A stretch of 64,000 nucleotides of DNA from an uncultured virus (IMG/VR IMGVR_UViG_3300034061_005656) (Duplodnaviria > Heunggongvirae > Uroviricota > Caudoviricetes). The stretch is from IMG/VR virus record IMGVR_UViG_3300034061_005656. The stretch is one strand, 5' to 3'. Below, one piece after another: positions 47,874 through 64,000 of the stretch (its first letter is position 1; every line of letters starts with the position of its first letter). The notes beneath the pieces are model-generated. The model saw only the letters and a program-made list of their open reading frames with translations. It did not search any database and was not told the DNA's origin. The position numbers and the translations under genes are program-made.

Positions 47874-48648
47874 ATCAAACCTCAATCCTGACCGTGACCG
47901 CTTCCTCGAGACGGTCCGATCACATCTCGGCTACAAAACTCGACCTTCCGGCCTGAGCGAGTTTGCAGTGCAGACGGGCTACAAAGGCGAGGCTATTCCT
48001 TGGTCCGGTGCGTTTCTAGATGTCTGCGCTCGTGATTCAAATGTATTCATGCCGGCATGCATTTACACACCGTCCGGCCTGGCGGAGTTTTCTGCAGACG
48101 GACGGGTTGTTTCTACACCCGAACCAGGCGACATTGTTTTTTACTCGTTCCCGACGGCTGAACAATTTGGGATGCCCCATTGCGGCGTGGTAGCCAGCGC
48201 AGACGAGTTCGAGCAGACGGGCATGTTTTCTGCGATCGAAGCTCAAGTCAATTCAGGCCTGCCGAAGGCGTCACAAAGCAAGACGGGCATCTTTGAGAGA
48301 GTTCGCTGGAAATACGAAGTTATTGCGTTTGTTCGTCCAGATTTTTCACGCAGGCCTGCTATAGAAAAACAAAAAGAGCAGACGGACAAGGTTTTGATCA
48401 AGCTCCGAAGCGTGCAGCCTGGTAGGCAGAACTCGAGCGTGCAGACGGTACAGAAAGCTCTGGCTCAAGTTGCCGGCTTGAAAAATGAAAACCCGACTGT
48501 GTTTGACGAAGCAACTCAGCTCGCGTACTCGAGGTGGCAGCGACAGATTGGTTTCGTGTACCCTGACTGTACTGGAGTACCGGATCGAGCAAGCTTGAGA
48601 TTACTGGGAAAAATTTCCGGAATGTTCAGTGCAGATTCTGAAAACTAA
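47851..48648 (+). CDS. CHAP-like domain + peptidoglycan-binding domain protein (catalytic Cys apparently replaced by Ser)
   Basis: 'PWSGAF', 'PEPGDIVFY', 'HCGVV', 'IEAQ'; C-terminal 'VQTVQKAL...AYSRWQRQIG...GVP..SL..LG'. Confidence 0.65.
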   Translation: MTIFKKTKSNLNPDRDRFLETVRSHLGYKTRPSGLSEFAVQTGYKGEAIPWSGAFLDVCARDSNVFMPACIYTPSGLAEFSADGRVVSTPEPGDIVFYSFPTAEQFGMPHCGVVASADEFEQTGMFSAIEAQVNSGLPKASQSKTGIFERVRWKYEVIAFVRPDFSRRPAIEKQKEQTDKVLIKLRSVQPGRQNSSVQTVQKALAQVAGLKNENPTVFDEATQLAYSRWQRQIGFVYPDCTGVPDRASLRLLGKISGMFSADSEN

Positions 48649-48690
48649 AGCTGATATAATGTAACTAACCTCACTACATAAGGAGACACA

Positions 48691-49179
48691 ATGACAGTAG
48701 TAAATAAGCGCACTCGCGTTAACAGCCAAGAAAAGACACGCAACGCAGTCCTTGCGACGCTAAAGCTTTCAGATCAGCCTTTGGTACTTAATGAAGTCCA
48801 AGCTCTTCTCGCAATGCGCGGCGTATCACTTCACGTAACATACGTTAGTGAAATTCTTAAGCAGCTTATTCAAGCCGGCAAAATTTCCCAGCGGAATGAA
48901 ACGCCAGCCGAGCGAGTTGTTCGTTTCGGCAGACACGAGCCACGCGGCGCACATTTTAAAGCAGTGTACTTCTGGGGCGAGCCTGGCAAAGTTCCAGCAC
49001 GCACAAAAGTAAGCAACATACACATGACGGGTCGGATAGCAAAAAAGACACGCAGGCCTGCTAAGGCAGCTCGAGTGCAGACGGGCACTAAAATCACTGC
49101 CCGCGAAAACTTGAGTCTTATGACGCGTGTTGCTGAGCTTGAAGCTCAGATTGCTGAGATGCGCAAAATTATTGGCTAG
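48691..49179 (+). CDS. Winged-helix-like DNA-binding protein
   Basis: 'VLATLK..QPL...EVQ.LL.......TYVSEILKQLIQAGKI'; AAGGAG SD. Confidence 0.55.
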   Translation: MTVVNKRTRVNSQEKTRNAVLATLKLSDQPLVLNEVQALLAMRGVSLHVTYVSEILKQLIQAGKISQRNETPAERVVRFGRHEPRGAHFKAVYFWGEPGKVPARTKVSNIHMTGRIAKKTRRPAKAARVQTGTKITARENLSLMTRVAELEAQIAEMRKIIG

Positions 49180-49282
49180 CGAACGCAGGCCTGCCAGGGA
49201 GCTTCCAAAAGCAGACGGACAGCCTGCTAGGGGGCTCCCTAAAAGCAGACGGGTCGCTCTTGAGTTGTGATAACGTGAACAC

Positions 49283-49546
49283 GTGATTCATCTTGCGCTG
49301 TACGTTGTTGAGGACGTCGAGGACGCTGCGCTCGCAGAGCGAAACGAGATCTTCGAGTTTGTCATTGATGGATCAGAATGCGAAAACTGCGGAATGGTGA
49401 TTGGCCCATCGCTTGATGCATTCTTCCCATGCGTTGTGATCGTTGATACAGACGAAAAACTCGATGTTGATAGCTGGGCAATTTGCCTAGACTGTGCTGC
49501 ACCTTTGATGTATCCCAATGAATGGGTTCTCAACCTCGAGCTGTAG
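49283..49546 (+). CDS. Acidic Zn-finger hypothetical protein
   Basis: CENC...CLDC. Confidence 0.5.
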   Translation: MIHLALYVVEDVEDAALAERNEIFEFVIDGSECENCGMVIGPSLDAFFPCVVIVDTDEKLDVDSWAICLDCAAPLMYPNEWVLNLEL

Positions 49547-49577
49547 AGTACAAAACTAAAGTTGTTATAATGATTCC

Positions 49578-49784
49578 ATGCAGCCAAACATTAATCATCA
49601 CGCCAACATTCATACAACGCTCGTTACACCTGCGAAGTCTTTCACATGTGACATCGAAGGCGAATTCCGAGTAGTCTGCACCTGCGGAGTGCTCGGCAAG
49701 AACGTCGTCTTTGCCAGCAAAGATCTCGCAGAAACTGCGGCGGCACAGCACCGTGAATTCGGTGTAAAACTAAAGTCGTTATAA
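49578..49784 (+). CDS. Cassette gene, leaderless, CxC..H motif
   Basis: ATG 6 nt after TATAAT; runs through the next repeat. Confidence 0.6.
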   Translation: MQPNINHHANIHTTLVTPAKSFTCDIEGEFRVVCTCGVLGKNVVFASKDLAETAAAQHREFGVKLKSL

Positions 49785-49792
49785 TAGCTTCC

Positions 49793-49957
49793 ATGGGACT
49801 TCTCCAAGCATACGCTATCTACAAATACGGCAAAAGCCGGCAGAAGAAGCGTCAACGTTTAGAAGAAGAGTACTGGGAAGAGATCTGCGATCTCTGTGGC
49901 TTCGCTCGTGCACAGCACGCTCGCGACGCTCAAGAGACGTGCCCAACCTACAGCTAA
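49793..49957 (+). CDS. Cassette gene, leaderless, 54 aa
   Basis: MGLLQAYAIYKYGKSRQKKRQRLEEEYWEEICDLCGFARAQHARDAQETCPTYS*; ATG 7 nt after TATAAT. Confidence 0.6.
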   Translation: MGLLQAYAIYKYGKSRQKKRQRLEEEYWEEICDLCGFARAQHARDAQETCPTYS

Positions 49958-50023
49958 AACTAAAGTTGTTATAATGATCTCATGCCGCAAGGCACAACCT
50001 ACAAAAAACGAAAGGACAATCCA

Positions 50024-50431
50024 ATGAGAAAACTCACTACTATCGAGGTGCATGGCGCTAAGATCGAGATCATGCCACGCGTCTACAGCGTTCACGATCG
50101 ACGCTCCGCGTACTCACAAGCTCCACGAATGTACGTCAGCGTTGCAGACGAGACTTTGTTTGACAACCTTGCCAATCGCAAGCGTCGTCCTTATAACGTC
50201 TACAAGACACTGATTCACGCGAGTGGCATCTCTGAGATTCTCGATCTCAGCCGCTTGAGCTGGTCCCAATACGCTGGGTGCACCTGCCCCTGCTCGCCGG
50301 GATTCATTCTCAATCGTCAAACACTCCGGTTCGAAGACGAAGTCTTTTTGAACTTTGATGTTTGGGTGACTCTCGAGTCTGCTCCTTCAGTTGATGAGCG
50401 AAAGGCGCCCCGCGTTCTCGCGGGCGTCTAA
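50024..50431 (+). CDS. Cassette gene, hypothetical ('WSQYAGCTCPCSPGF')
   Basis: GAAAGGAC SD before ATG 50024. Confidence 0.7.
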   Translation: MRKLTTIEVHGAKIEIMPRVYSVHDRRSAYSQAPRMYVSVADETLFDNLANRKRRPYNVYKTLIHASGISEILDLSRLSWSQYAGCTCPCSPGFILNRQTLRFEDEVFLNFDVWVTLESAPSVDERKAPRVLAGV

Positions 50432-50484
50432 GCTCAAAACTAAAGTTTATATAATAATCTCACCAACCTACGAAAGGACATATC

Positions 50485-50712
50485 ATGTCAACAGCAACTT
50501 CAATCGACTCTCACGTCAGAGTCAAGGGCATCACTCCCAATGTGAAAATTATTGACTGGGGCAGTCGCATTACGCTTCGCATCGAAGTCGGCGATGCCAG
50601 CATGACCTGGTACCTCAACCCGCTCACAGACGAAGCAATTGGTGACTACACTCAGCGTGTCATCGACGCGCTCGGTGAAGTCAAAATTGACTTGGCCTCC
50701 GCCGAAAACTAA
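50485..50712 (+). CDS. Cassette gene, hypothetical
   Basis: GAAAGGAC SD; stop codon inside the next repeat. Confidence 0.7.
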   Translation: MSTATSIDSHVRVKGITPNVKIIDWGSRITLRIEVGDASMTWYLNPLTDEAIGDYTQRVIDALGEVKIDLASAEN

Positions 50713-50755
50713 AATTGTTATAATCATTTCACCAACTACAAAAGGACAACCTACA

Positions 50756-51154
50756 ATGTTTCAACACGCAACAATCACACACCGAGATCGCAAAGTCACG
50801 ATGGCGTTCGATGGCCCAGTGCTCCCACAAGAAAAGGACGACATTGACGTCTGGCACGAGCGTGTCAAGGTGTCATGCTCACACAACAAAGACAAGAAAG
50901 TCTACGAGGCGCATGTGTCTTGGTGCAAGGCATCACAACGTAATGGCTTCGCAATGGAGCAGACTGCGATCTTTACTGATCCGCACATTCTGATCTCTCG
51001 TGAGCCTGCGGCTCGCTTCAATGAAAACAAATTTGCAACTTTTTGTGCGCAGGTTCGATTGCTTTGCGCAGCTGCAGCAGCAGATCAGAATAATGTCAGC
51101 GCCGCAGCTGAACTCCTGCGTAAGGCAGAGAGCTACAACCTCGTGAAAAACTAA
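50756..51154 (+). CDS. Cassette gene, hypothetical
   Basis: AAAGGAC SD; stop codon inside the next repeat. Confidence 0.7.
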   Translation: MFQHATITHRDRKVTMAFDGPVLPQEKDDIDVWHERVKVSCSHNKDKKVYEAHVSWCKASQRNGFAMEQTAIFTDPHILISREPAARFNENKFATFCAQVRLLCAAAAADQNNVSAAAELLRKAESYNLVKN

Positions 51155-51188
51155 AGTTGTTATAATAATTCCATAACGAAAGGACAAA

Positions 51189-51455
51189 ATGAGCTATCAA
51201 TTTATTTATGACGAAGAAGCGGTAATCCAAGACGCTGACATCGAAATGGCGCACGCCATCGCGCGAGGCAACTACCTTGCGGCCCTCGAGCGTCGCGGCA
51301 TCTGCGTGCACGATAGCGTCGTGGGCGTTTCCGCCACAGGCGAGATCTTCTACCCTGGACAGGTCGGCCTTGTTGGTGACCAGCAGCGATGCCAGGGCTG
51401 TGGAGTAGTTTTCGAAAGCTTCGAAGACTGGTGCGACACAACCAGGAATCTCTAA
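51189..51455 (+). CDS. Cassette gene, Zn-binding hypothetical
   Basis: GAAAGGAC SD; CxH...CxxC; followed by a hairpin. Confidence 0.7.
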   Translation: MSYQFIYDEEAVIQDADIEMAHAIARGNYLAALERRGICVHDSVVGVSATGEIFYPGQVGLVGDQQRCQGCGVVFESFEDWCDTTRNL

Positions 51456-51552
51456 GCGGTGAGGTCTGCCGGCACCGAAATGGTGTCGGCGTGGCCCGCC
51501 TGAAAACTAAAGTTGTTATAATGATCTTACACCTACTACAAAAGGACAAAAA

Positions 51553-51744
51553 ATGACACACGCACTTGACGAAGTTATCTTCGAAAGCAAACTCACAGTC
51601 GGCGGTCTCGTCGACCTTATCAACTACATGGGCGACGACTCCGAAGACGTCATCATTCCTGAAGACCTTCGCATGATTCTTGAGACACGTCTCTCAAACG
51701 CGGTACTTCAAGAAGTCTCAAGCTTTATCGAAGACTACTTCTAA
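51553..51744 (+). CDS. Cassette gene, acidic hypothetical
   Basis: AAAGGAC SD. Confidence 0.65.
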   Translation: MTHALDEVIFESKLTVGGLVDLINYMGDDSEDVIIPEDLRMILETRLSNAVLQEVSSFIEDYF

Positions 51745-51790
51745 ACTAATACCTAATACACACAAATACGTACAGCAAAAGGACAAAATA

Positions 51791-51955
51791 ATGGAAACAG
51801 CAAATAAAAAATACGTGGTAATTCACCTTCGCATAGACCAACAAATACCAGAAGACAAAGTTGACGAAACTATCAATCAATACATCGACGTACTTTCGCG
51901 CGCCGGTGGCGATTTGACGTGGAACTGTTGTGACTGGGACACGTTCGACGTCTAA
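51791..51955 (+). CDS. Cassette gene, acidic hypothetical
   Basis: AAAGGAC SD before ATG 51791. Confidence 0.6.
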   Translation: METANKKYVVIHLRIDQQIPEDKVDETINQYIDVLSRAGGDLTWNCCDWDTFDV

Positions 51956-52004
51956 AAACTAAAGTTGTTATAATAATCTTACACCCACTACGAAAGGACA
52001 CATC

Positions 52005-52376
52005 ATGGGAGACAGAGCAGTAATCGGATTCCAAAAGAGCAAGGAAGACATTCCAGTCTTTCTTTATGCACACTGGGGCGGCAGCGACAGATACGTCGAT
52101 GCGCAGCGCGCAGTCGAGGCAGCACGTCCTCGCTGGGACGACCCAGCCTACGCAACCCGGATTGGAATCTCGCAAATTGTCGAGAACTACTGGGCTGAGG
52201 AAACTGGGTTCGGAATCAGCGCCGGACACGACTCATTCGCACAGCCAGACTATGACGATGTCATTCTGATTAGCTGGGACGAGCGAGAGGTCTATGTCGT
52301 AAGTGCAGGCGACTCGCAGCACGTCACAGCGACGTTTTCATTCGAGCAGTTTACAACTATGCTCGCGATGAATTGA
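52005..52376 (+). CDS. Cassette gene, conserved phage hypothetical ('MGDRA...LYAHWGG')
   Basis: GAAAGGAC SD. Confidence 0.75.
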   Translation: MGDRAVIGFQKSKEDIPVFLYAHWGGSDRYVDAQRAVEAARPRWDDPAYATRIGISQIVENYWAEETGFGISAGHDSFAQPDYDDVILISWDEREVYVVSAGDSQHVTATFSFEQFTTMLAMN

Positions 52377-52427
52377 AAACTAAAGTTGTTATAATAATCT
52401 TATCAACCTAACCCGAAAGGACACATC

Positions 52428-52751
52428 ATGGCCACCATGACAAAAACCACAACGACAGTTTCAACAGAGACTTTCACCGTACTAGACCCTTCAGCAGAAG
52501 CGCTGATTGCTCAGTTCAATGACGCGAAAGCCGCGATCAAAGCAGCTGAAGCACTGAAGCAAGAAGCTGAAGCCAAGCTTCGTGAAATGCTCGCCGGGCA
52601 AGACGTCGGCGTAATCAATGGCGTCGAGCGCGTAAAAGTTCAGCATCGCAATCTGACCAAGGTCGATCGTGAAATGCTGAAGCTCGCGTTCCCTGAAGCG
52701 CACGAAGCAACGCTAGTCGTCTCGAGTTACACAGTTCTTCAAACGAAGTAA
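52428..52751 (+). CDS. Cassette gene, coiled-coil hypothetical
   Basis: GAAAGGAC SD. Confidence 0.7.
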   Translation: MATMTKTTTTVSTETFTVLDPSAEALIAQFNDAKAAIKAAEALKQEAEAKLREMLAGQDVGVINGVERVKVQHRNLTKVDREMLKLAFPEAHEATLVVSSYTVLQTK

Positions 52752-52764
52752 CTCGAGCAAGAAC

Positions 52765-52912
52765 TGGGTGGCCAGCCCTTGGCCAGGATATTACAAGGGC
52801 TGGCTAGCCGCAGCGGTGCGAGTTGTCTCGCTAAGTAAGGCACCTGCCACGCCAAGAGCATATCCTTCGGGGTCACTGCCAAGTCGCAAGCGCAGATCGT
52901 TAGCAGCCGCTG
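52765..52912 (+). ncRNA. Candidate structured RNA (3' UTR or sRNA)
   Basis: gccagcccttg/caagggctggc stem; loop AGGATAT complementary to ATATCCT at 52860; cagcgg/ccgctg closing stem. Confidence 0.4.
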
Positions 52913-52920
52913 AAACTCGC

Positions 52921-53164
52921 AAAACTAAAGTTGTTATAATGACAACATAACCTACCACAAAGGACAACCTACAAAATGACAAACAAACAAAAAAACTCAT
53001 CATCTTTTGGATTCTCGGTGCATCTCGAGTTTAGAAAAGTTACTGGCTCAGTGACGCGGGTTCGGAGACTTCGTCTCGTGCGCTTTAGCTCACTCAGGTT
53101 GCCAAGACTGCGCGGCTCCAATGCTGCTACCAGTCTTGTGTAGCAAGAATCTAAAACTAAAGTT
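52921..53164 (+). repeat. Cassette A copy 1 (identical to 60468-60711)
   Basis: Base-by-base identity from repeat to repeat; carries a 55-aa ORF 52976..53143. Confidence 0.92.
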
Positions 53165-53207
53165 TGTATAATAGCTACTACCAACCTATAAAAGGACAAC
53201 CTACAAA

Positions 53208-53702
53208 ATGACAACCACAAATTCTTCAACCACAATCGCCGGCAATGCGATTTACCTCGAGCTTGCTAAGCCAAACATAACAACTCAGATGCTTATCATG
53301 CCGGAAGGCACATCGTCTTCTCACAAGACAGTACCAATGACAGTCTATCGTCGCCGAATTACAGCACATGCTCCTCGTAGGACATGGAAAGCTGTAAGTG
53401 CGCCGACCACTGCTCGTCACCTTATTTCTTCAGCTCTTGACACAGAGCCAGCAGTCGCAATAAATGCAGTGCTTACTCCACTTCATCCGCTGTTTCGCTC
53501 AGTCGCGGCTAACGAGTACGTTCTCTGTAGACAACCAATCTACGTAGAAGTCACTCCTGAAGACTTGGAGCTGTGCATTACTGCAAAGACTCCATACAAA
53601 GTTCTCGGAAGAGTGATGAAAGTTCGCAAGTCTCTTGGATTCCCCAAAGAGATTATCCACGAACTATTGCCGCCAACTCCAGCCGCAACTTCAACTTTCT
53701 AA
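53208..53702 (+). CDS. Cassette gene, hypothetical
   Basis: AAAGGAC SD; stop codon inside the next repeat. Confidence 0.7.
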   Translation: MTTTNSSTTIAGNAIYLELAKPNITTQMLIMPEGTSSSHKTVPMTVYRRRITAHAPRRTWKAVSAPTTARHLISSALDTEPAVAINAVLTPLHPLFRSVAANEYVLCRQPIYVEVTPEDLELCITAKTPYKVLGRVMKVRKSLGFPKEIIHELLPPTPAATSTF

Positions 53703-53749
53703 AGTTGTTATAATAATTCCACAACCTACTATAAAAGGACACAAACACA

Positions 53750-54754
53750 ATGTTAGTTAACCAACCTCTCTCCGCTGAAGCAGAAAAGATTCACGCAGGG
53801 CTATCGTCAGTTCTTGCTGACTTCGCTGCTCAATCATTTAGCTCTGAAGCTGCAGATAGAATGAACGCGTTAGTCAGCGATAGCGGGCGCGCAACAGTTC
53901 GTAAAGCAGCAGAAAAGAAAAAGATTGCAATGGTAGAAACAGAAGCTCTTACTGGTGAATCACAATACTCTCGGCCAAATGGCGAAAAGTATTACTCGCG
54001 TGCATGGGGCGAGCACAACGATGTGCAAGTACTTCTCAATGCTCGAAGCATCAATGCGTATGTACTTCTGTACGGTGCGCCTGGCTGCGGAAAGACTGCA
54101 GCTATAGAAGCTGCGTTCGCCGATCAGCCCGGTGGCTTGTACACAGTGCTTGGCTCTGGAGATACTGAAGTATCCGACCTCGTTGGTGGGTACGTCCAGA
54201 CACCCAGTGGTGGATTCCTCTGGGAGGATGGACCTCTTGTCAAGGCAGCTGAAAAAGGCGGAGTGCTTCTCATTGACGAAGTCGGTCTCATCGATCCCAA
54301 GGTTCTGTCAATCGTGTACGGCCTCATGGATGGTCGCCGTGAGTACACAGTCACAGCGAACCCAGAACGCGGAACTGTCAAAGCAGCAGATGGGTTCTAC
54401 GTTATTGCGGCAACGAACCCGAACGCGCCAGGAGTACGCTTATCTGAAGCGTTGCTTTCTCGCTTTGCGATTCACGCTGAAATGACTACAGACTGGGCGC
54501 TGGCTCGCAAGCTTGGCTGCCCAGTCCCTGTTGTTACTGCAGCGCAGAATCTCAGCAAGAAGCAGCAATCTGCAGAAGTGTCCTGGGCGCCACAAATGCG
54601 TGAGCTTCTCGCATTCCGAGATCTTTCCAAGACGTTCGGCACAAAGTTTGCAATCGCAAACCTGCTGGCTGCTGCTCCAGAAATTGATCGGCCGGTCGTG
54701 GCAGATGTCTTCACCCGAGTCTTCGGTGAGGAATGCCGCCCAGCAAAGATCTAA
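53750..54754 (+). CDS. MoxR/CbbQ/NirQ-type AAA+ ATPase
   Basis: Walker A 'GAPGCGKT', 'WEDGPLVKA', Walker B 'LLIDE', 'AATNP', 'LSEALLSRF'. Confidence 0.9.
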   Translation: MLVNQPLSAEAEKIHAGLSSVLADFAAQSFSSEAADRMNALVSDSGRATVRKAAEKKKIAMVETEALTGESQYSRPNGEKYYSRAWGEHNDVQVLLNARSINAYVLLYGAPGCGKTAAIEAAFADQPGGLYTVLGSGDTEVSDLVGGYVQTPSGGFLWEDGPLVKAAEKGGVLLIDEVGLIDPKVLSIVYGLMDGRREYTVTANPERGTVKAADGFYVIAATNPNAPGVRLSEALLSRFAIHAEMTTDWALARKLGCPVPVVTAAQNLSKKQQSAEVSWAPQMRELLAFRDLSKTFGTKFAIANLLAAAPEIDRPVVADVFTRVFGEECRPAKI

Positions 54755-54760
54755 TGGTCT

Positions 54761-54802: not shown

Positions 54803-54854
54803 GAAAACTAAAGTTTATATAATGAACCTATACCCACATGAAAGGACAAACGAC

Positions 54855-57081: not shown

Positions 57082-57125
57082 AATTGTTATAATAGTCTCA
57101 GCAGCCCATGACGAAAGGACACATA

Positions 57126-57296: not shown

Positions 57297-57330
57297 GCGG
57301 GGCACAGCCCAAAACTAAAATTGTTATAAT

Positions 57331-57431
57331 GATCTCACCAGCCAGCCACAAGGGCAGGCCCTAATAAATAGCCGTGAGAGGGCGCTCGGCGGACCTGACC
57401 TAAGGTCCAAACAAAATGCCCAATGGAATCA
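57331..57431 (+). ncRNA. ORF-less cassette: candidate structured small RNA
   Basis: Flanked by two repeats, no SD or ORF above 10 codons; stems gggca/tgccc, gccg/cggc, gag/ctc, ggacc/ggtcc. Confidence 0.5.
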
Positions 57432-57832
57432 AAAACTAAAGATGTTATAATGAATTTATCAGCCACGATGGCTGGTAACGACGAAAGGACAAGTCAACAT
57501 GAACAAGAAATGGTCACTCCTCAAGAGCAGCGACATCGGCCCAATGGGACGCGGTCAGAATGGCAAGAAAAAGGTGTACGAAGTCACCCTTGATGGCCAA
57601 ACAGTCACCTTCGAATGGGGTATGGCTGAGATGACCCGCCGTCAGCGCCAGGTTCGCACCTTCAGCACCTCACAGGCCGCCATCAACGCGGCTTACGAAA
57701 AAGTGGGCGCAAAGCTGGATCGCGGATACTCGGTCGCCTACGCGGTCTAAGCGGTCAAGGAGCCGGGCCGGCGAGAGCCGGACCCGGCCCCGCCACTCCG
57801 CAAAACTAAAGATGTTATAATGATCTTGTACG
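57425..57832 (+). repeat. Cassette B copy 1 (identical to 60948-61355)
   Basis: 408 bp identical, spanning two repeats. Confidence 0.92.
57499..57750 (+). CDS. WGR-domain-like protein, copy 1
   Basis: 'KVYEV.LDG..V..EWG......Q..TFST.QAA..A...K..KLDRGY'. Confidence 0.7.
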   Translation: MNKKWSLLKSSDIGPMGRGQNGKKKVYEVTLDGQTVTFEWGMAEMTRRQRQVRTFSTSQAAINAAYEKVGAKLDRGYSVAYAV

Positions 57833-57851
57833 CATGACGAAAGGACAAAAT

Positions 57852-58133
57852 ATGCACACTACAGAAACACACGCCGTGGAGTTCTTGGTAACAGATTCAA
57901 TCTGCTACGAAGTAATTCGCCAAACAAACAAAACAATCTCACTGAGAAAATGTTTAAGCGGTGAAAAGGTCAGCGGAGAGTGGCCAGTGGTCTACTCAGC
58001 AGCGGTGAGCAACCCAGAAGGAGAAACCATTACATTGCGACTTCGCAAGGATGGGACCTTCCGCAGAGCAAACTGGGCGAATCCAATGCGCTTCACAAGC
58101 CAGCCAGCCTTCCGCACTGACTACGCCTTCTAA
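57852..58133 (+). CDS. Cassette gene, hypothetical
   Basis: GAAAGGAC SD; hairpin over the stop. Confidence 0.65.
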   Translation: MHTTETHAVEFLVTDSICYEVIRQTNKTISLRKCLSGEKVSGEWPVVYSAAVSNPEGETITLRLRKDGTFRRANWANPMRFTSQPAFRTDYAF

Positions 58134-58224
58134 GGCGTAGCCGGTGGCGGCCGGCGGTGCCGGCAGGAAAACTAAAATTGTTATAATGATTCCATGCCCA
58201 CAAGGGCGAAACGAAAGGACAAAA

Positions 58225-58530
58225 ATGAAGAACGTAACGACTACATGGAAAGCTTTCGGAAAGCCAACGTACTCGGTCATCATGATTGAAAACGACATGA
58301 CAGACCTCGAGATCTGCGAAGAGCTTTTCAAAGCGACCAACATCTACTCTGGCTGGCTGTGGGACGCACTCCAGTACGACATCCCTGCGGATCGCACGCA
58401 CACAGCGTTGTCTGTTGGCGATGAGATCAGCGTCGATGGCACGGTGTATCGCTGCGCCCCAGTCGGCTGGGAAGTTGTCGCAAAGTACGAAGTTGACAAC
58501 TTCGCTCTGTCGGAGAAAGACTTCCGATAG
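58225..58530 (+). CDS. Cassette gene, hypothetical ('ALSVGDEISVDG..YRC...GW')
   Basis: GAAAGGAC SD. Confidence 0.7.
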   Translation: MKNVTTTWKAFGKPTYSVIMIENDMTDLEICEELFKATNIYSGWLWDALQYDIPADRTHTALSVGDEISVDGTVYRCAPVGWEVVAKYEVDNFALSEKDFR

Positions 58531-58572
58531 AAACTAAAGTTGTTATAATAGTAAGTAACGAAAGGACAAAAA

Positions 58573-58821
58573 ATGAAAACAATTGAAGAAATGACAGTCG
58601 AAATGGAGCCGCGGCTCAATCGCGGTGGAATAAAAGTTCTCACTGTGAAAGCTCTCCTAGAAATTCTTATGGAGTGTGACCCAGAAGATGACGTGGTGAT
58701 CGGTGCTCACGCGGTTGGACTCGAGTGGCTAAATGTCTCCTCGGTGACTCTCCCTGATGGAGATGAGTACATCGCTCTCACTCTCAATGTCGAAGACACT
58801 TTCGACCACTGCCAATTCTAA
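58573..58821 (+). CDS. Cassette gene, acidic hypothetical
   Basis: GAAAGGAC SD. Confidence 0.65.
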   Translation: MKTIEEMTVEMEPRLNRGGIKVLTVKALLEILMECDPEDDVVIGAHAVGLEWLNVSSVTLPDGDEYIALTLNVEDTFDHCQF

Positions 58822-58873
58822 AAACTAAAATTGTTATAATAATCTTATCAACCTACAACAAAGGACACAAACA

Positions 58874-59107
58874 ATGAACTCAACAATCCACATCCCAGGA
58901 CGACTCACTGCAAAAATTAGCAATGGAAGAATTATTGGATATGTCTTTGATATTGCGGCAAATGACGCCGGATACTTTGGAGACGCTTTCAATCTTATTG
59001 AAGGTGACGAAATGACAGCAAATGAGTTCTCAGACTTAGTTACGGGTTCACTCATGTTTACTCAAGATCGCAAGTCCGCGTTCTTCTCGGTTGAGCTGGG
59101 CGCATAG
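58874..59107 (+). CDS. Cassette gene, hypothetical
   Basis: CAACCTACAA + AAAGGAC leader. Confidence 0.65.
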   Translation: MNSTIHIPGRLTAKISNGRIIGYVFDIAANDAGYFGDAFNLIEGDEMTANEFSDLVTGSLMFTQDRKSAFFSVELGA

Positions 59108-59165
59108 CTTCTAAAAACTAAAATTGTTATAATAATCTTACCAACCTACAACAAAGGACAACCCA

Positions 59166-59348
59166 ATGACACCTACAAAAGAACACAAGGCAATCGTGAA
59201 TGACATCATCGCATTCGCGAGCGACTTCCCACGCGAGATTGTGGATGAGGTAATTTCAGACTACATCCAGATGCTCAAGGACGCCGATGGGCTGAGCAAC
59301 CTCGATGTGGACGTCATCATCAGCATGCTCTGGGCGCGCGGATACTAA
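59166..59348 (+). CDS. Cassette gene, hypothetical (paralog of 61368..61547)
   Basis: CAACCTACAA + AAAGGAC leader. Confidence 0.65.
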   Translation: MTPTKEHKAIVNDIIAFASDFPREIVDEVISDYIQMLKDADGLSNLDVDVIISMLWARGY

Positions 59349-59393
59349 ACTAAAGTTGTTATAATAACATTGTCAATTACGAAAGGACACACA

Positions 59394-59795
59394 ATGACAG
59401 TAGATAGAGAGACGCTTCGCGCAATCGCGGACGAACTGACGCCCATCATCGAGGCAACGCTAAAACGACATGGTCTTGACACTCCCAAAATGCAGTGGAA
59501 GTATGGCGCAATGCTCGAGCTCAAGGCGACTGCGGCCGCGTTGAGCGAAGGCCCCAATGGAATCAACCTCGGCTCAAGAGAAGCTCAGTACTACACTCGC
59601 TTCGGCTTTCCCGGTCTTGACGCAAAACTTGGTACAGTGTTTAGCGTCAAAGGTGAAGAGTTTGCGTTCGCGGGAATTGCTGCATCACGCAGGAAGTACC
59701 CAATTTACGCTAAAAACATTGAAACCGGAGCTTACATTTTCTACACGGAAATGGTGATTCCTACAATCAACGCTGCCGCAAAAGCGGCAGTGTAA
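59394..59795 (+). CDS. Cassette gene, hypothetical ('RRKYPI')
   Basis: GAAAGGAC SD. Confidence 0.7.
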   Translation: MTVDRETLRAIADELTPIIEATLKRHGLDTPKMQWKYGAMLELKATAAALSEGPNGINLGSREAQYYTRFGFPGLDAKLGTVFSVKGEEFAFAGIAASRRKYPIYAKNIETGAYIFYTEMVIPTINAAAKAAV

Positions 59796-59804
59796 GGAGC
59801 GGTC

Positions 59805-60020
59805 ATGGGAAATGAAAAAACAATTGACACTTGCTGCGATTTAGTGCAAGATGACCAAGTTGAGTACGCGGTTGACTCGCTCGGTGAAATAGCGAAAATC
59901 CTCAGCCTGGCTGAGAACGCAGACAGCGTGACGGACATGCGTGGGCTCATTGCGGTAGCAATATTCAAGTCAAGCGAAGCCCGGTCACGGATCAAAAAGA
60001 TGAGCGAAATGCGTTTCTAA
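59805..60020 (+). CDS. Hypothetical protein
   Basis: AAGGAG SD, co-transcribed. Confidence 0.6.
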   Translation: MGNEKTIDTCCDLVQDDQVEYAVDSLGEIAKILSLAENADSVTDMRGLIAVAIFKSSEARSRIKKMSEMRF

Positions 60021-60259
60021 TGAGTCTTGCACACGGATCGAAGAAAGAGTCTCTCGCGAAGACCGCAACCTGGTATCTAAGCGATTTGTTGCTGACGGGC
60101 GTCATAGCGTTCGCTGTAACTCGAGACGTTTCAACTTCTTTGATAATTGCCGGCTTGCAGCAGACGTGGGAAGTTTTGCTCTATTACTTTCACGAAAGAG
60201 TCTGGGTCAAACTTCAGGCCCGCCGTGGGGCAGAAAATGCAGACGGGTCGGCTTTTTAG
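60020..60259 (+). CDS. DUF2061-like small membrane protein
   Basis: 'SLAKTATW...LYYFHERVW'. Confidence 0.7.
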   Translation: MSLAHGSKKESLAKTATWYLSDLLLTGVIAFAVTRDVSTSLIIAGLQQTWEVLLYYFHERVWVKLQARRGAENADGSAF

Positions 60260-60467
60260 CTTCAGGCCTGCCATAGGCCTGCAAGTGCAGACGGGTGCCA
60301 CTTTCATCCACTGAGGTTCTGAGCATGTTCAGAACCTGAAGTAGGCAGTAAATACCACAAAAGCCTCTTACAAGCTCCTGAGGTCTCAAAAAGCCGGTTT
60401 TTTGTCTAAAAACTAAAATTTATATAATGACGACATGACAAACGACATGACATGCCCAAAGGAACTG

Positions 60468-60711
60468 AAAACTAAAGTTGTTATAATGACAACATAACCT
60501 ACCACAAAGGACAACCTACAAAATGACAAACAAACAAAAAAACTCATCATCTTTTGGATTCTCGGTGCATCTCGAGTTTAGAAAAGTTACTGGCTCAGTG
60601 ACGCGGGTTCGGAGACTTCGTCTCGTGCGCTTTAGCTCACTCAGGTTGCCAAGACTGCGCGGCTCCAATGCTGCTACCAGTCTTGTGTAGCAAGAATCTA
60701 AAACTAAAGTT
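60468..60711 (+). repeat. Cassette A copy 2
   Basis: Identical to 52921-53164. Confidence 0.92.
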
Positions 60712-60761
60712 GTTATAATGTATTTATCAGCGACCCGCTGGTACCGACGAAAGGACAAAAC

Positions 60762-60926
60762 ATGCTCGGTGGAAAGCCATCAACACGACTTCACGAGGTC
60801 ATCGACACATCGTACCAATACACGATGATTGTTCACACAGGCTCAAAGAGCGCCTGTAACGCCTACTGGCTGAATCAGCCGGCCAAAAAGCGTCAAGACC
60901 TCGAGGTTCGAGTCGCCAAGCGCTAA
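60762..60926 (+). CDS. Cassette gene, 54 aa
   Basis: GAAAGGAC SD; MLGGKPSTRLHEVID...VRVAKR*. Confidence 0.6.
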   Translation: MLGGKPSTRLHEVIDTSYQYTMIVHTGSKSACNAYWLNQPAKKRQDLEVRVAKR

Positions 60927-60947
60927 CGCGCTTGGGGCTCCGGCCCC

Positions 60948-61355
60948 GGAATCAAAAACTAAAGATGTTATAATGAATTTATCAGCCACGATGGCTGGTA
61001 ACGACGAAAGGACAAGTCAACATGAACAAGAAATGGTCACTCCTCAAGAGCAGCGACATCGGCCCAATGGGACGCGGTCAGAATGGCAAGAAAAAGGTGT
61101 ACGAAGTCACCCTTGATGGCCAAACAGTCACCTTCGAATGGGGTATGGCTGAGATGACCCGCCGTCAGCGCCAGGTTCGCACCTTCAGCACCTCACAGGC
61201 CGCCATCAACGCGGCTTACGAAAAAGTGGGCGCAAAGCTGGATCGCGGATACTCGGTCGCCTACGCGGTCTAAGCGGTCAAGGAGCCGGGCCGGCGAGAG
61301 CCGGACCCGGCCCCGCCACTCCGCAAAACTAAAGATGTTATAATGATCTTGTACG
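60948..61355 (+). repeat. Cassette B copy 2
   Basis: Identical to 57425-57832. Confidence 0.92.
61022..61273 (+). CDS. WGR-domain-like protein, copy 2
   Basis: Identical to 57499..57750. Confidence 0.7.
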   Translation: MNKKWSLLKSSDIGPMGRGQNGKKKVYEVTLDGQTVTFEWGMAEMTRRQRQVRTFSTSQAAINAAYEKVGAKLDRGYSVAYAV

Positions 61356-61367
61356 GAAGGACACGAA

Positions 61368-61547
61368 ATGAAAACACAGAAGCAAATACAGCAGATCGCC
61401 AAGGACATCTTCGCGGACGCGAGTGAATACCCAGCGGACGTGCGGGACGAGGTTCTCGACGAGCTAATCAACATCTGGCTCCTCGATGAGGACCTCAGTG
61501 CCGGCGAGAAAAGCCAACTGATCATTGCGGTGTCGGCCCGCCGCTAG
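61368..61547 (+). CDS. Cassette gene, 59 aa (paralog of 59166..59348)
   Basis: AAGGAC SD; MKTQKQIQQIAKDIFADASEYPADVRDEVLDELI... Confidence 0.6.
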   Translation: MKTQKQIQQIAKDIFADASEYPADVRDEVLDELINIWLLDEDLSAGEKSQLIIAVSARR

Positions 61548-61594
61548 CGTGCCAGCACCTCGGTGCTGAAAACTAAAATTGTTATAATGTACTC

Positions 61595-61753
61595 ATGGCG
61601 AGTAACAAGAAATCAAAAACAGTGGTGAAGTGGTCAGACGAAGACCATCAAGCTTTTGCGGATCGTAACATCCTCCGCGCTCAGACGATTCCAAATAAAA
61701 AAAGAATCGCGAGTCGCAAGGCGTGTCGCGGTCGAGCGCGAGGAGAGTGGTAG
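61595..61753 (+). CDS. Cassette gene, leaderless basic 52-aa protein
   Basis: MASNKKSKTVVKWSDEDHQAFADRNILRAQTIPNKKRIASRKACRGRARGEW*; paralog at 63883. Confidence 0.7.
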   Translation: MASNKKSKTVVKWSDEDHQAFADRNILRAQTIPNKKRIASRKACRGRARGEW

Positions 61754-61816
61754 TCGCGGTGCCGGCTTGAATGTGCGGCGTAGCCTGCAGAAAACTAAAG
61801 TTGTTATAATGTATTT

Positions 61817-62029
61817 ATGAGCACCGACCAAATCACCACCAAACTTAACATCGACCTTAAATCCGGCTACTACCTCGCCGACCGATTTACTGCCGATACA
61901 AAACTCGCAATTATCGAACACGACTCGTACATGCGCCTTCTTGCCGTTCTTACGCCTGACCAGCACGCCCACCTTCTCGATCTTGCCAAAAACGACCAAT
62001 TCCACGCGATTTCCGGTCACGCTATCTAG
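61817..62029 (+). CDS. Cassette gene, leaderless
   Basis: ATG 6 nt after TATAAT. Confidence 0.6.
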   Translation: MSTDQITTKLNIDLKSGYYLADRFTADTKLAIIEHDSYMRLLAVLTPDQHAHLLDLAKNDQFHAISGHAI

Positions 62030-62094
62030 CCGGCCTCAATAAACATAAAACTAAAATTGTTATAATGATCTTATCAGGAAGGGATAAAATAAAA

Positions 62095-62352
62095 ATGGAA
62101 AAAGAGATAGTTAAATTCGAAGTCGACGTGGCGTTCGATGACGAAAGTTTTGAAGAAGTATTAGAGCGTTTGGGTAGAGAAGTCCCGAATGCGTTTTTGA
62201 GAATCGTGCGGCTAGTGGGATCTGGCGGTGGATGGCCAACTATCGAAGTGATGATTCCAAAAAACGAAATTCGTAAATTTGCGGAATGGTATTGCAAAGA
62301 CGATGCGGACGAGTTGGAAATCGGATTCTTGGAAGATGCGGTCGCCTTATAG
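62095..62352 (+). CDS. Cassette gene, acidic hypothetical ('GSGGGWP')
   Basis: AAGGGA SD before ATG 62095. Confidence 0.65.
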   Translation: MEKEIVKFEVDVAFDDESFEEVLERLGREVPNAFLRIVRLVGSGGGWPTIEVMIPKNEIRKFAEWYCKDDADELEIGFLEDAVAL

Positions 62353-62419
62353 GCGGCTTCATCTTCGGATCGGTAAAAACTAAAATTGTTATAATGTATT
62401 TATCAGGAAGGAATGAAAA

Positions 62420-62593
62420 ATGAGCAAGATGACAGCAGCGGAGCGAAAAGAAGCGAAAGAGTGGGGTGAGGCGTCAGAGCGGATCAGAACCCGCGAAGGT
62501 TGGAAAACCTATCAAAACGCACGTCTTGCCGGCTCCAGCCATTACGACGCGCTCGATCTCGCATTTCAAGCCGACATCATAGTGCCGGCTTGA
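62420..62593 (+). CDS. Cassette gene, 57 aa
   Basis: AAGGA SD; MSKMTAAERKEAKEWGE...DIIVPA*. Confidence 0.55.
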   Translation: MSKMTAAERKEAKEWGEASERIRTREGWKTYQNARLAGSSHYDALDLAFQADIIVPA

Positions 62594-62663
62594 AATAAAA
62601 ACTAAAATTGTTATAATGTATTTATCAGCCGCGGTGGCTGGTACAAAAAGAAAAAAGGACAAA

Positions 62664-62957
62664 ATGAACAAAATCACTTTTATGCAGGCAGTCGAATTGA
62701 TCGATATCGCGGCTCAAGAAAATCGCTTGTGGCACTACAATGGCGGATCAGGTTACGTCCGCGTGAGTGACTCATCGAACGTTTTGATGGTCATCGAGCA
62801 CGCTTCGTCGCAAGGTGCGAGCGTTACACTGCACGATGGCACTGAGTACTTCAAGGCGTACAATGGCACGCAGTTTGCGCAGTCAGAGGCGCATCGCAAT
62901 CGCGAGTCTCTCGTCGAGTTTTTCTCAACGCGGTTCGTCAACCCTGTGCTGCTATAA
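62664..62957 (+). CDS. Cassette gene, hypothetical
   Basis: AAAGGAC SD; stop overlaps the next repeat. Confidence 0.65.
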   Translation: MNKITFMQAVELIDIAAQENRLWHYNGGSGYVRVSDSSNVLMVIEHASSQGASVTLHDGTEYFKAYNGTQFAQSEAHRNRESLVEFFSTRFVNPVLL

Positions 62958-63008
62958 AACTAAAATTGTTATAATGTTTTTATCAGCTACAAATACAAAG
63001 GACACACA

Positions 63009-63317
63009 ATGAATGCAACAATTTCTGACGAACAACTAGCAGTGCGAGATGCGGTCACCGAGCTCATCAGCTTCATGGACTCAAAGACAAGCCTAGGCAC
63101 TTACAGACTCGATGGTGGTCGCAAGTACCTTCGCATCGTAAGCACGCTAAGCGTTCACTGCTTCGTGGAGGCTCGTACGGGCGACGTGTACATGGCAGCT
63201 TCATTTGCGAAGCCAATGCTCAATGGCGCACGCTACAATCTCCTGGACGCGGACTCATTCGAAAAGCTGAAAAGCGAGTGGGACGAGTTCGGCAGCTACC
63301 TCTACAAAAAGAAGTAG
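63009..63317 (+). CDS. Cassette gene, conserved phage hypothetical ('GRKYLRIV..SVHCFV...TGDVYMAAS..KP')
   Basis: AAAGGAC SD; motif recalled from small genes of large phages. Confidence 0.7.
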   Translation: MNATISDEQLAVRDAVTELISFMDSKTSLGTYRLDGGRKYLRIVSTLSVHCFVEARTGDVYMAASFAKPMLNGARYNLLDADSFEKLKSEWDEFGSYLYKKK

Positions 63318-63325
63318 CGCAAGAC

Positions 63326-63400
63326 CTAGACGATTCGTCGTCGTCTAGTGAGGTGCTTGAGCGCTGGGTTCTCCCCTTTCGTCCCCAGCGCTCGCACCTC
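63326..63400 (+). terminator. Two hairpins with loops complementary to ACGACGAA and GACGAAAGG leaders
   Basis: ctagacga-TTCGTCG-tcgtctag; gaggtgc-tt-gagcgctggg-TTCTCCCCTTTCGTC-cccagcgctc-gcacctc. Confidence 0.7.
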
Positions 63401-63444
63401 TTCAATCTTTTTCAGCAAAAACTAAAATTGTTATAATGGTATTC

Positions 63445-63804
63445 ATGAACACCATCACACTCAAAACCGAAACCCAAACCGAACTTATCTTCGAATTCAC
63501 ATTCGACTACGAATACGCGCTCACCACGCCCTTCGGCATCGACGAGCCATCCGACGTCCTCTCGTTCTTCTTCGACGACGACACACATCAAACTGTCACC
63601 TACGACCTCACCATTTTCACTGACCCTAACGATTACTACTTCGCGACCGGTCTCACCGAAAACGGCTACGGCTCCGACTGCTCCGACTACGACAGCATCG
63701 ACGACATCGCATACACCTTCGGCCACCCGATTATCGACATCGTCACTGCCGAACTTACGCGCCGCAACTTGCCGCTCGTCGCATCGCGCAACTGGCCTTC
63801 ATAA
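63445..63804 (+). CDS. Cassette gene, leaderless acidic protein
   Basis: ATG 7 nt after TATAAT; strongly C-ending codons. Confidence 0.65.
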   Translation: MNTITLKTETQTELIFEFTFDYEYALTTPFGIDEPSDVLSFFFDDDTHQTVTYDLTIFTDPNDYYFATGLTENGYGSDCSDYDSIDDIAYTFGHPIIDIVTAELTRRNLPLVASRNWPS

Positions 63805-63882
63805 ACACGCCGCTCTGCCGGCTGGCCTCGCGCCAGCCGGTCACAGCTCAACCCGCAAAACTAAAATTGTTATAATGTTCTT

Positions 63883-64000
63883 ATGAGCACGAACACCAAA
63901 AAACAAAAAACAAAAAACACATGGTCCGCCGCCGATCATCAGGCTTTCGCCGATCGCAACATTCTTCGGGCCCAAACAATTCCGAACAAAAAACGCATCG
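63883..64000 (+). CDS. Cassette gene, leaderless, partial; paralog of 61595..61753
   Basis: MSTNTKKQKTKNTWSAADHQAFADRNILRAQTIPNKKRI... Confidence 0.7.
   Translation, partial: MSTNTKKQKTKNTWSAADHQAFADRNILRAQTIPNKKRI

Follow-up and report, generated by a model that had tools for sequence, protein, structure and literature searches.

The region from 48641 to 64000 of a 64,000-nucleotide stretch of DNA from an uncultured virus (IMG/VR record IMGVR_UViG_3300034061_005656; the whole stretch is called the window below) is occupied by an array of 37 units with 39 predicted genes, each unit opening with a near copy of the same 20-bp repeat. It is likely that these repeats are promoters lacking a -35 element, read by host RNA polymerase with its primary sigma factor, and that they double as the homology through which recombination turns over the gene cassettes lying between them. 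As discussed below, the sequence CTAAAG in the upstream half of the repeat may call for a further contact.

The 20-mer AAAACTAAARTTGTTATAAT, searched for with up to three mismatches, has 35 matches in the window, all on the + strand and all within 48641-63876, where a mean of 0.01 matches would be expected by chance (100 dinucleotide shuffles). In the form CTAAAN5TATAAT, the repeat occurs exactly 37 times on the + strand (48645-63876), never on the - strand and never in the other 48 kb of the window; a preliminary description of this DNA had rightly put the number at about 37 in one orientation. When TATAAT hexamers are scanned without assuming the upstream half, the window holds 46 on the + strand and 9 on the - strand; CTAAA stands at the fixed distance of 5 nt from all 37 + strand hexamers inside 48.6-64 kb and from none of the remaining 18 (9 on each strand). 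Promoters are a median of 342.5 nt apart and 30 of the 36 spacings fall in 150-550 nt, close to the 150-500 bp first described. The start of the array at 48641 also stands, but not its end at 64000: an IMG/VR contig (G008) that is 100% identical to window positions 61229-64000 carries 12 extra promoter copies over about 10 kb. Because of this continuation, the full array is likely to comprise about 49 promoters and 80 genes over about 25 kb.

With TATAAT numbered -12 to -7, the repeat is laid out as AAAA (-26 to -23), CTAAAG (-22 to -17), T/A-T-G-T (-16 to -13) and the hexamer itself. It is thus a two-part element, made of CTAAAG and a mostly extended -10: TGnTATAAT, with the TG at -15/-14 before a TATAAT-like hexamer that defines extended -10 promoters, in which a -35 can be dispensed with, is present in 31 of the 37 units, which would be classed as such by their sequence. 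When 114 sites from five arrays (this one and those of relatives) are profiled for information, conservation starts sharply at AAAA and the profile is flat upstream of -26, and only 3/37 sites pass a -35/-10 consensus scan. Since there is no information upstream of AAAA, the repeat has no -35, in agreement with the earlier remark that no TTGACA is present.

To judge from its genes, the window belongs to a large tailed phage of freshwater Actinobacteria related to Actinomycetia phage DSL-LC01. Outside the array it encodes three WhiB proteins (6004-6540, 36244-36576 and 38293-38595), a DUF3039 protein, a Prim-Pol/D5 primase-helicase, a class II ribonucleotide reductase, tail-fibre proteins and one tRNA-Thr. 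The primase is 82% identical to that of DSL-LC01, a 129-kb circular lake genome assembled from a metagenome, and about 52% identical to those of the Microbacterium phages Pumpernickel, Zooman and A3Wally (186-195 kb). All 24 public runs in which the stretch occurs are lake-water or unspecified metagenomes, and a megablast search of 48000-64000 against GenBank phages gave no match. Relatives carry arrays too. DSL-LC01 has at least 21 copies of the repeat (a lower bound, as variants with TATAGT or CTGAAG/CCAAAG exist), all forward and all in 23590-40598, between the endolysin and terminase genes, with none in its other 112 kb. Eight further IMG/VR contigs have 1-23 copies each, always on a single strand, and a scan of metagenome contigs returned at least 135 stretches, mostly with single copies, along with a few contigs with several (7, 3, 3 and 2). 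No occurrence of the 16-mer CTAAAGTTGTTATAAT was found in the literature searched, and titles and opening lines of abstracts on actinophage promoter repeats hold no description of such arrays; in the covered text of the DSL-LC01 paper (PMC10611076), the words 'promoter' and 'repeat' occur 0 times.

The features of the array are listed here, with coordinates in the window.
Whole array, 48641-64000, + strand: 37 promoter units, 39 predicted genes; continues past the window end (G008, locus L024).
Unit 1, 48641-49551, + strand: promoter AAAACTAAAGCTGATATAAT, its CTAAA containing the stop codon of the endolysin-like open reading frame (ORF) 47821-48648; genes 48691-49179 (162 aa, winged-helix-like plus coiled coil) and 49283-49546 (87 aa).
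Unit 2, 49552-49765, + strand: leaderless gene 49578-49784 (68 aa), its stop being the TAA in the next TATAAT.
Unit 3, 49766-49955, + strand: spacer GTCGT, no TG; leaderless gene 49793-49957 (54 aa).
Unit 4, 49956-50435, + strand: gene 49982-50431 (149 aa from a leaderless ATG); in-frame ATG at 50024 led by a Shine-Dalgarno (SD) sequence; 5' hairpin TGCC-GCAA-GGCA.
Unit 5, 50436-50704, + strand: spacer GTTTA; gene 50485-50712 (75 aa).
Unit 6, 50705-51146, + strand: gene 50756-51154 (132 aa).
Unit 7, 51147-51502, + strand: gene 51189-51455 (88 aa), then a hairpin (-31.6 kcal/mol); extra 350-bp cassette at the promoter in contig G006.
Unit 8, 51503-51954, + strand: genes 51553-51744 (63 aa) and 51791-51955 (54 aa), the second (51744-51954) missing in G006 and preceded by a decayed AAACTAA.
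Unit 9, 51955-52375, + strand: gene 52005-52376 (123 aa, phrog_31860).
Unit 10, 52376-52920, + strand: gene 52428-52751 (107 aa, C-terminal part of the RecE-like phrog_434); structured 169-nt 3' region.
Unit 11, 52921-53152, + strand: gene 52976-53143 (55 aa); missing in G006, duplicated as unit 26.
Unit 12, 53153-53694, + strand: spacer GTTTG; gene 53208-53702 (164 aa).
Unit 13, 53695-54803, + strand: variant promoter CTTTCTAAAGTTGTTATAAT; gene 53750-54754 (334 aa, AAA_5, MoxR/CobS-like), then a hairpin (-30.5 kcal/mol).
Unit 14, 54804-56813, + strand: gene 54855-56660 (601 aa, weak VWA match), strong hairpin, two AGGCCTGC..GCAGACGG repeats.
Unit 15, 56814-57073, + strand: degenerate promoter CTTTCTAAAGATTGTATAAT; gene 56866-57081 (71 aa).
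Unit 16, 57074-57310, + strand: gene 57126-57296 (56 aa).
Unit 17, 57311-57431, + strand: promoter, no ORF of 25 aa or more.
Unit 18, 57432-57801, + strand: 5' hairpin; gene 57499-57750 (83 aa, WGR domain); hairpin (-34.4 kcal/mol); duplicated as unit 28.
Unit 19, 57802-58167, + strand: gene 57852-58133 (93 aa); missing promoter to promoter from a contig of lake metagenome X12.
Unit 20, 58168-58529, + strand: 5' hairpin; gene 58225-58530 (101 aa).
Unit 21, 58530-58820, + strand: gene 58573-58821 (82 aa).
Unit 22, 58821-59113, + strand: gene 58874-59107 (77 aa).
Unit 23, 59114-59345, + strand: gene 59166-59348 (60 aa).
Unit 24, 59346-60408, + strand: genes 59394-59795 (133 aa), 59805-60020 (71 aa) and 60020-60259 (79 aa, DUF2061), then two GCAGACGG repeats.
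Unit 25, 60409-60467, + strand: spacer ATTTA; no ORF; promoter 59 nt upstream of the next.
Unit 26, 60468-60699, + strand: gene 60523-60690 (55 aa); copy of unit 11.
Unit 27, 60700-60954, + strand: 5' hairpin with a compensatory change in its stem; gene 60762-60926 (54 aa).
Unit 28, 60955-61324, + strand: gene 61022-61273 (83 aa, WGR); copy of unit 18.
Unit 29, 61325-61568, + strand: gene 61368-61547 (59 aa).
Unit 30, 61569-61790, + strand: leaderless gene 61595-61753 (52 aa), paralogue of the unit 37 gene.
Unit 31, 61791-62046, + strand: leaderless gene 61817-62029 (70 aa).
Unit 32, 62047-62375, + strand: gene 62095-62352 (85 aa).
Unit 33, 62376-62597, + strand: gene 62420-62593 (57 aa).
Unit 34, 62598-62955, + strand: 5' hairpin; gene 62664-62957 (97 aa).
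Unit 35, 62956-63417, + strand: gene 63009-63317 (102 aa, DUF7717), then hairpins.
Unit 36, 63418-63856, + strand: leaderless gene 63445-63804 (119 aa), then a hairpin (-25.4 kcal/mol).
Unit 37, 63857-64000, + strand: leaderless gene from 63883, running off the window.

The position of the start codons bears directly on the promoter reading. The first gene of a unit starts with ATG in all 35 cases. In 28 units this ATG lies 22-47 nt past the hexamer, behind an SD sequence of the GAAAGGAC type, and in seven (units 2, 3, 4, 30, 31, 36 and 37) it lies only 6-7 nt past the hexamer, leaving no room for a ribosome-binding site, and opens the sole ORF of its unit (7/7); the two other units have no ORF of 25 aa or more. 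Over the five arrays, ATG or GTG stands at offsets 5-7 in 25 of the 114 sites (binomial p=4.7e-5). Actinobacterial leaderless mRNAs start about 6-8 nt past the -10 and have no SD sequence, a geometry to which 7/37 units would conform by sequence. Transcription is expected to start 6-7 nt past TATAAT, so that the ATG would be the first base of the mRNA in the seven leaderless units and the 28 others would have 5' untranslated regions of roughly 16-41 nt containing the SD sequence.

Promoter intervals mostly hold one gene (one in 32, two in 2, three in 1), as in the earlier account of usually one short ORF per unit. The leader is less stereotyped than that account had it: AAGGAC is found in 25/37 units and the leaderless class is confirmed, but the AACCTA-type opening is limited to 11/37. 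Genes and promoters are tightly interlocked, the stop codon of the upstream gene lying inside or abutting the repeat in 13/37 cases, where it is supplied by the TAA of either CTAAA or TATAAT or is fused with the A's that open the repeat. At 13 of 36 junctions, the upstream stop and the promoter are separated by a GC-rich hairpin without a T-tail, so that a hairpin before the next repeat is found less often than had been stated; T-tailed terminators are not enriched in the array (17, where shuffles give 20.4). A hairpin would close about one unit in three, the rest probably being read through. The predicted leader also opens with a hairpin at its very 5' end in 6/37 units, compared with 3% of shuffled leaders (49956-50000, 57432-57480, 58168-58210, 60700-60745, 60955-61003 and 62598-62640); one stem shows a compensatory change (CAGCC/GGCTG versus CAGCG/CGCTG), and these hairpins may stabilise the mRNA. 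The two units without an ORF (57311-57431 and 60409-60467) may be emptied cassettes or encode small RNAs. The 95-nt RNA predicted for unit 17 folds no better than shuffled sequences (z=-1.1) and has no Rfam match, and an Rfam search of the whole window returned the tRNA only.

The repeats are probably host sigma-A promoters, as argued from their sequence, and the promoter role first proposed for them is supported by the TGnTATAAT core and the seven ATGs placed at the expected start. A search for a sigma factor of the phage's own (Sigma70_r2, PF04542) gave nothing above cut-off in DSL-LC01 (a complete genome) and the contigs G001, G002 and G008, and no T7-type RNA polymerase (PF00940) was matched in the same four, a weak negative as the positive control was also silent; neither sigma factor nor RNA polymerase families were found among 91 scanned window proteins. 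Because no phage sigma factor or polymerase was found, and because of the TGnTATAAT core and leaderless geometry, the host primary-sigma holoenzyme is the best candidate reader. T7-type promoters are near-identical over about 20 bp in many copies, and the dozens of near-identical copies of the 20-mer recall them, which could make the likeness to TATAAT coincidental and the repeat a promoter for a phage-encoded polymerase or sigma factor. We consider this very unlikely, since the only trace of such a protein in DSL-LC01, G001, G002 and G008 is a PF04542 match below cut-off (12.4 bits, in G008) and since the motif ends in TGnTATAAT with an ATG at the start distance typical of sigma-70-type promoters.

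What distinguishes the repeat from an ordinary extended -10 promoter is CTAAAG. In 46 orthologous promoter pairs from different lineages, anchored on the -10, the bases of CTAAA agree in at least 90% and the G in at least 80%, against 30-60% at -26 to -23, 40-70% at -16 to -13 and 20-30% further upstream; this supports the preliminary description, in which conservation of the upstream part was said to go beyond the needs of a -10 box. The flanking consensus varies with the lineage (AAAA in the window, GATT in DSL-LC01, gAAA in contig G003). Because CTAAAG is conserved between lineages while its flanks differ, it is under constraint and has not simply been copied from unit to unit, and this conservation points to a specific contact, either by the polymerase itself or by a dedicated factor. 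Sigma region 3 and the beta-prime zipper are possible polymerase contacts upstream of the -10. We know of no base-specific contact of a sigma-70-type holoenzyme at -22 to -17.

A dedicated factor, whether a phage, virion or host protein, could use CTAAAG as its docking site, acting as an activator that stands in for the -35 or as a repressor that shuts the class off early. This account overlaps with reading by host polymerase and does not exclude it; we hold it to be possible, without favouring it. Between lineages, CTAAAG varies no more than the -10 does, the -26 to -23 and +1 regions being lineage-specific, and since none of the 18 remaining TATAAT hexamers in the window has it, it sets these promoters apart as a class. 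The gene at 48691-49179 comes first in the array in the four lineages compared (the window, G006, G002/G004 and DSL-LC01), and its product has weak profile matches to Fur/Zur winged-helix regulators (E 0.016-0.022) and PadR/Fur/IclR-like structural neighbours (Atlas TM 0.41-0.49), making it a candidate for the factor and nothing more. WhiB proteins are available as well: the window encodes three outside the array, and a fourth is encoded where the array continues. On the other hand, the first gene product resembles DNA-binding folds only weakly, the very first transcripts of the array could not depend on an activator encoded by the array itself, and conservation of CTAAAG could reflect polymerase contacts instead. 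A bolder form of this idea, which we put forward only tentatively and with more doubt than belief, is that CTAAAG, one helical turn upstream of the -10, is a new promoter element read by a lineage-wide factor that replaces -35 recognition on actinobacterial RNA polymerase or shuts the class off, the module doubling as turnover homology for a library of about 50 units. If true, this would be a 'sigma appropriation' or class switch new for actinophages.

Asymmetric sites in a single orientation in short intergenic gaps are also what would be seen if the repeats were operators or 'stoperators' for the repressor of a temperate phage, as in mycobacteriophage L5, with silencing in the lysogen as their main role. 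DSL-LC01 was called 'lysogenic' in the portion of its description covered (PMC10611076), probably because of a serine recombinase like the one of 226 aa encoded in the window at 26560-27240 on the - strand. However, stoperators are not themselves promoters, and every array site has a perfect or near-perfect -10 at a fixed distance, seven of them with leaderless-start geometry, so that the repeats would be promoters first. The serine recombinase is only of resolvase size, and no tyrosine integrase (PF00589) was found in DSL-LC01, G001, G002 and G008 (the control being positive in 14/14 genomes) or among the 91 window proteins. Neither was a prophage copy seen among 185,579 prokaryote genomes scanned with the 20-mer, where 30 isolated matches in AT-rich genomes, non-actinobacterial by record title and taken as chance, include no array. 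A primary role in silencing is therefore unlikely.

Besides their probable role as promoters, the repeats are where the arrays of close relatives differ. Compared with the window, contig G006 (92-97% identical) carries an additional cassette of 350 bp, placed precisely between two promoters, the alignments overlapping at 51147-51197, that is, over promoter and leader. It lacks 51744-51954 (one gene), the right edge being the first base of promoter 9 and the left edge lying inside the decayed AAACTAA, and it also lacks unit 11 (52921-53152), the exchange having taken place in 24 nt of leader, ribosome-binding site and ATGACAA common to units 11 and 12. Between G008 and contig G005, homology begins at the first base of a promoter. 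Finally, in a contig of 1057 nt from lake metagenome X12, a WGR cassette is joined to promoter 20 (61312 to 58168), unit 19 having gone promoter to promoter; this joint has at least 255 letters on each side, and other joints, whose shorter side of 21-35 letters is the promoter itself, were not counted. The window also contains two internal duplications, both beginning and ending in promoters. In the first, a single unit together with the promoter that follows it is present at 52921-53172 and again at 60468-60719, the copies matching at 99%; in the second, 57425-57848 and 60948-61374 match at 98%. Two independent contigs, G001 and G008, end within this second duplicated segment, as is typical of assemblies at genuine repeats. 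Summed contig depth in X5, about 16-18 over 60391-61424 against about 7-10 in neighbouring bins, fits a collapsed two-copy segment, although depth is not copy number and is not relied on here. In the promoter-dense part, junctions thus fall in the promoter-leader module in 5/5 differences between close relatives and in 2/2 internal duplications.

The exact crossover points differ from one event to the next (5' half of the motif, promoter-leader boundary, ribosome-binding site or start codon), which favours recombination driven by homology over a site-specific mechanism. Adjacent promoters resemble each other more closely than randomly paired ones do (0.579 versus 0.544, p=0.0012), and copies with the same G/A variant at position 10 tend to lie near one another (p=0.0016), the pattern left by concerted evolution through local duplication or gene conversion. 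We infer a recombination pathway from the anatomy of the units, their conservation and the positions of the junctions, all of which can be read directly: the same 20-65-bp promoter-leader module before nearly every gene would provide short homology for general recombination, which would delete, insert, duplicate and occasionally move promoter-to-promoter units. The outcome would be a fast-turnover set of mostly small genes without known function on a largely collinear backbone, in a promoter-dense, probably early, non-structural arm of an actinophage genome.

Units that are gained, lost and duplicated promoter to promoter, with a serine recombinase gene 21 kb upstream, could also be the work of a true integron-like capture system, in which a dedicated site-specific recombinase acts on the repeat. 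This seems extremely improbable: crossovers vary, the repeat is direct with no inverted-repeat core, no tyrosine integrase was matched in the four genomes and 91 window proteins searched, and indels also occur without the repeat. The label 'integron-like' used at first is accordingly unsupported and fails on the features that define integrons, neither an integrase nor attC-like inverted repeats having been found and each cassette having its own promoter.

Several observations weigh against reading the repeats as host promoters that double as recombination joints, or limit its reach. The two gene-sized indels between G008 and G005 (2/2) are both found in promoter-poor operons, and neither has a copy of the repeat at its junctions, so that genes can evidently turn over without it; moreover, with copies in most of the gaps between genes, an indel at any gene boundary is bound to fall near one. 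Shared gene families are mostly collinear with those of G004 (12/13), DSL-LC01 (16/20) and G003 (10/13), with one to four transposed families per comparison (for example F2, F8/F9, F1 and F27), and true reshuffling must for this reason be limited. As read from these alignments, genes are thus for the most part gained, lost or replaced while the backbone is conserved. The joint role originally proposed is supported for gain, loss and duplication by homologous recombination in the promoter-dense part, where breakpoints do fall at the repeat; it fails for the promoter-poor part, and the proposed reshuffling of cassette order is modest. As for transcription, most units are not insulated, given the minority of junctions with a hairpin and the lack of enrichment in canonical terminators; host polymerase alone may be an incomplete account, as CTAAAG has no known holoenzyme contact; the early timing, although probable, is argued by analogy; and the 24 public runs include no RNA run. 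Among the more distant, cultured relatives, Pumpernickel and Zooman have 0 and 1 copies of TGNTATAAT and no array, and in 49 kb around the Pumpernickel homologue of the array's AAA-ATPase gene, genes are tightly packed and no 12-mer is repeated more than three times. Since DSL-LC01 and the IMG/VR contigs have the array and these Microbacterium phages do not, the promoter-per-gene layout is a trait of the lake clade.

The cassette ORFs are, by their pattern of substitution, real genes under purifying selection. In ten cassette genes shared with G006, substitutions number 23, 9 and 83 at the three codon positions, with 80 synonymous against 28 non-synonymous codons. Three ORFs were left out of this count: F17, where an indel puts the ungapped comparison out of register, and F36 (49293-49400) and F41 (52768-52950), whose codon pattern is non-coding-like and which are probably not genes. 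The products are mostly small and without known relatives, as first described: 30/36 array proteins have no Pfam match (E<=0.001) and 29/35 no PHROG match, five of the six PHROG matches being to families of unknown function. Four families pass the curated Pfam cut-offs, namely AAA_5, WGR (two copies), DUF2061 and DUF7717, and the continuation in G008 adds ThyX, WhiB, DUF732 and DUF6011. As AAA+/VWA, ThyX, WhiB and other such proteins are present, the array encodes more than tiny 'takeover' peptides. Of the 80 predicted genes of the window and G008 array, 20 are in families also present in DSL-LC01.

Some individual genes can be singled out. The AAA_5 ATPase and the 601-aa VWA-like protein (53750-56660) form a pair kept inside the array in all lineages, and the ATPase has a 54% identical homologue in Pumpernickel. 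The 107-aa protein of 52428-52751 matches the C-terminal part of phrog_434 only; DSL-LC01 has two members of this family, one annotated as an endonuclease. The paralogous leaderless genes 61595-61753 and 63883-64000 encode a lysine-rich N-terminus and a common DHQAFADRNILRAQTIPNKKR-like core. In G008, ThyX and a fourth WhiB protein are encoded at 8280-8963 and 5504-5695, both on the - strand of that contig, and towards the distal end of the array the operons are longer and the promoters few.

A second repeat, GCAGACGG, unrelated to the promoter repeat, occurs 14 times on the + strand of the window and never on the - strand, in six places as the longer form AGGCCTGC-N15-18-GCAGACGG. Its copies cluster in and around the endolysin-like and first array genes (47970-49245), with others at 27497 and 42804 and two pairs, each 48 nt apart (56753 and 56801; 60239 and 60287), just upstream of promoters 15 and 25/26. 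Coding copies read RPA-x8-QTG, a peptide conserved in homologues of the first array gene. These repeats could be iterons or operator sites. Elsewhere in the window, 13111-19461 (- strand) encodes a 2116-aa collagen-like tail-fibre protein, with a G+C content of 0.53 against about 0.45 around it.

About 50 near-identical promoters without a -35, from a phage of abundant, hard-to-culture freshwater actinobacteria, are a natural set in which fixed positions (CTAAAG, TG and TATAAT) can be told from drifting ones, and they define a promoter class testable in model actinobacteria. The cassette proteins, mostly of no known family and under purifying selection, are for that reason defined candidates for host takeover or counter-defence. 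The array itself is an actinophage variant of known phage regulatory cassettes, and what reads CTAAAG is the more interesting question.

Some of the systems to which the array can be compared resemble it in part. Integrons share arrays of single-gene cassettes in one orientation and gain and loss of whole cassettes; the array has no integrase, attC or attI, its cassettes have a promoter each instead of the common Pc, crossovers vary, and no attC-like inverted repeats were found, its repeat being direct and asymmetric with its own -10 in every unit. In T4 middle promoters, sigma is appropriated by MotA/AsiA and a MotA box near -30 replaces the -35. A -10 with a class-specific upstream box in place of the -35 is common to both, as a functional analogy only, the MotA box being centred near -30 and the array box at -22 to -17. 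In the archaeal halovirus HF2, going by the part of the report covered (PMC8707807), intergenic repeats carry promoters, a likeness across different promoter types.

In gene content, the closest analogue is the host-takeover module of Bacillus phage SPO1, in which, according to the portion of the source covered (PMC6873191), 26 small early genes in a handful of operons occupy a 12.4-kb terminal region and have strong promoters and ribosome-binding sites. Each is a one-directional cluster of small genes whose functions are mostly unknown, and in each the promoters and ribosome-binding sites are of a high-expression type, as far as that source and our sequence allow the comparison; the array, known here from sequence alone, differs in having about one promoter per gene (37 for 39), probably some 49 over about 25 kb.

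The closest described system overall is that of the PeSLs (promoter-early stem-loops) of T4-type phages. In the parts of the reports covered (Arbiol et al. 2010, PMC2839356), these number about 50 and combine a conserved early promoter of the sigma-70 type with a stem-loop, upstream of genes without known homologues (ORFans) in hyperplastic regions. There, 10 of 14 differential ORFans adjoin a PeSL, recombination between PeSLs was proposed and the existence of mini-circles was demonstrated by experiment (PMC2839356; Comeau et al. 2014, PMC4122927). Likewise, the array has dozens of host-type promoter copies directly before ORFans in a variable region, all 37 within 48.6-64 kb; the module contains the stop codon of the gene before it, the indels that distinguish close relatives end at the module, and homologous recombination between modules is proposed. 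There are differences as well: the phage lineage and host phylum are unrelated, since the primase, WhiB and DUF3039 genes are not those of a T4-type myovirus; a PeSL has a -35, a -10 and an AT-rich upstream region, whereas the array has CTAAAG at -22 to -17 and neither -35 nor AT-rich region; conservation spans a core of about 20 bp, against about 100 bp in a PeSL; stem-loops, without a T-tail, are found in about a third of the units; and a fifth of all units are leaderless. By analogy, the array would work like the PeSLs without being one of them, and it extends the idea of regulatory repeats as joints for accessory-gene turnover from T4-type phages of Gram-negative hosts to an unrelated group.

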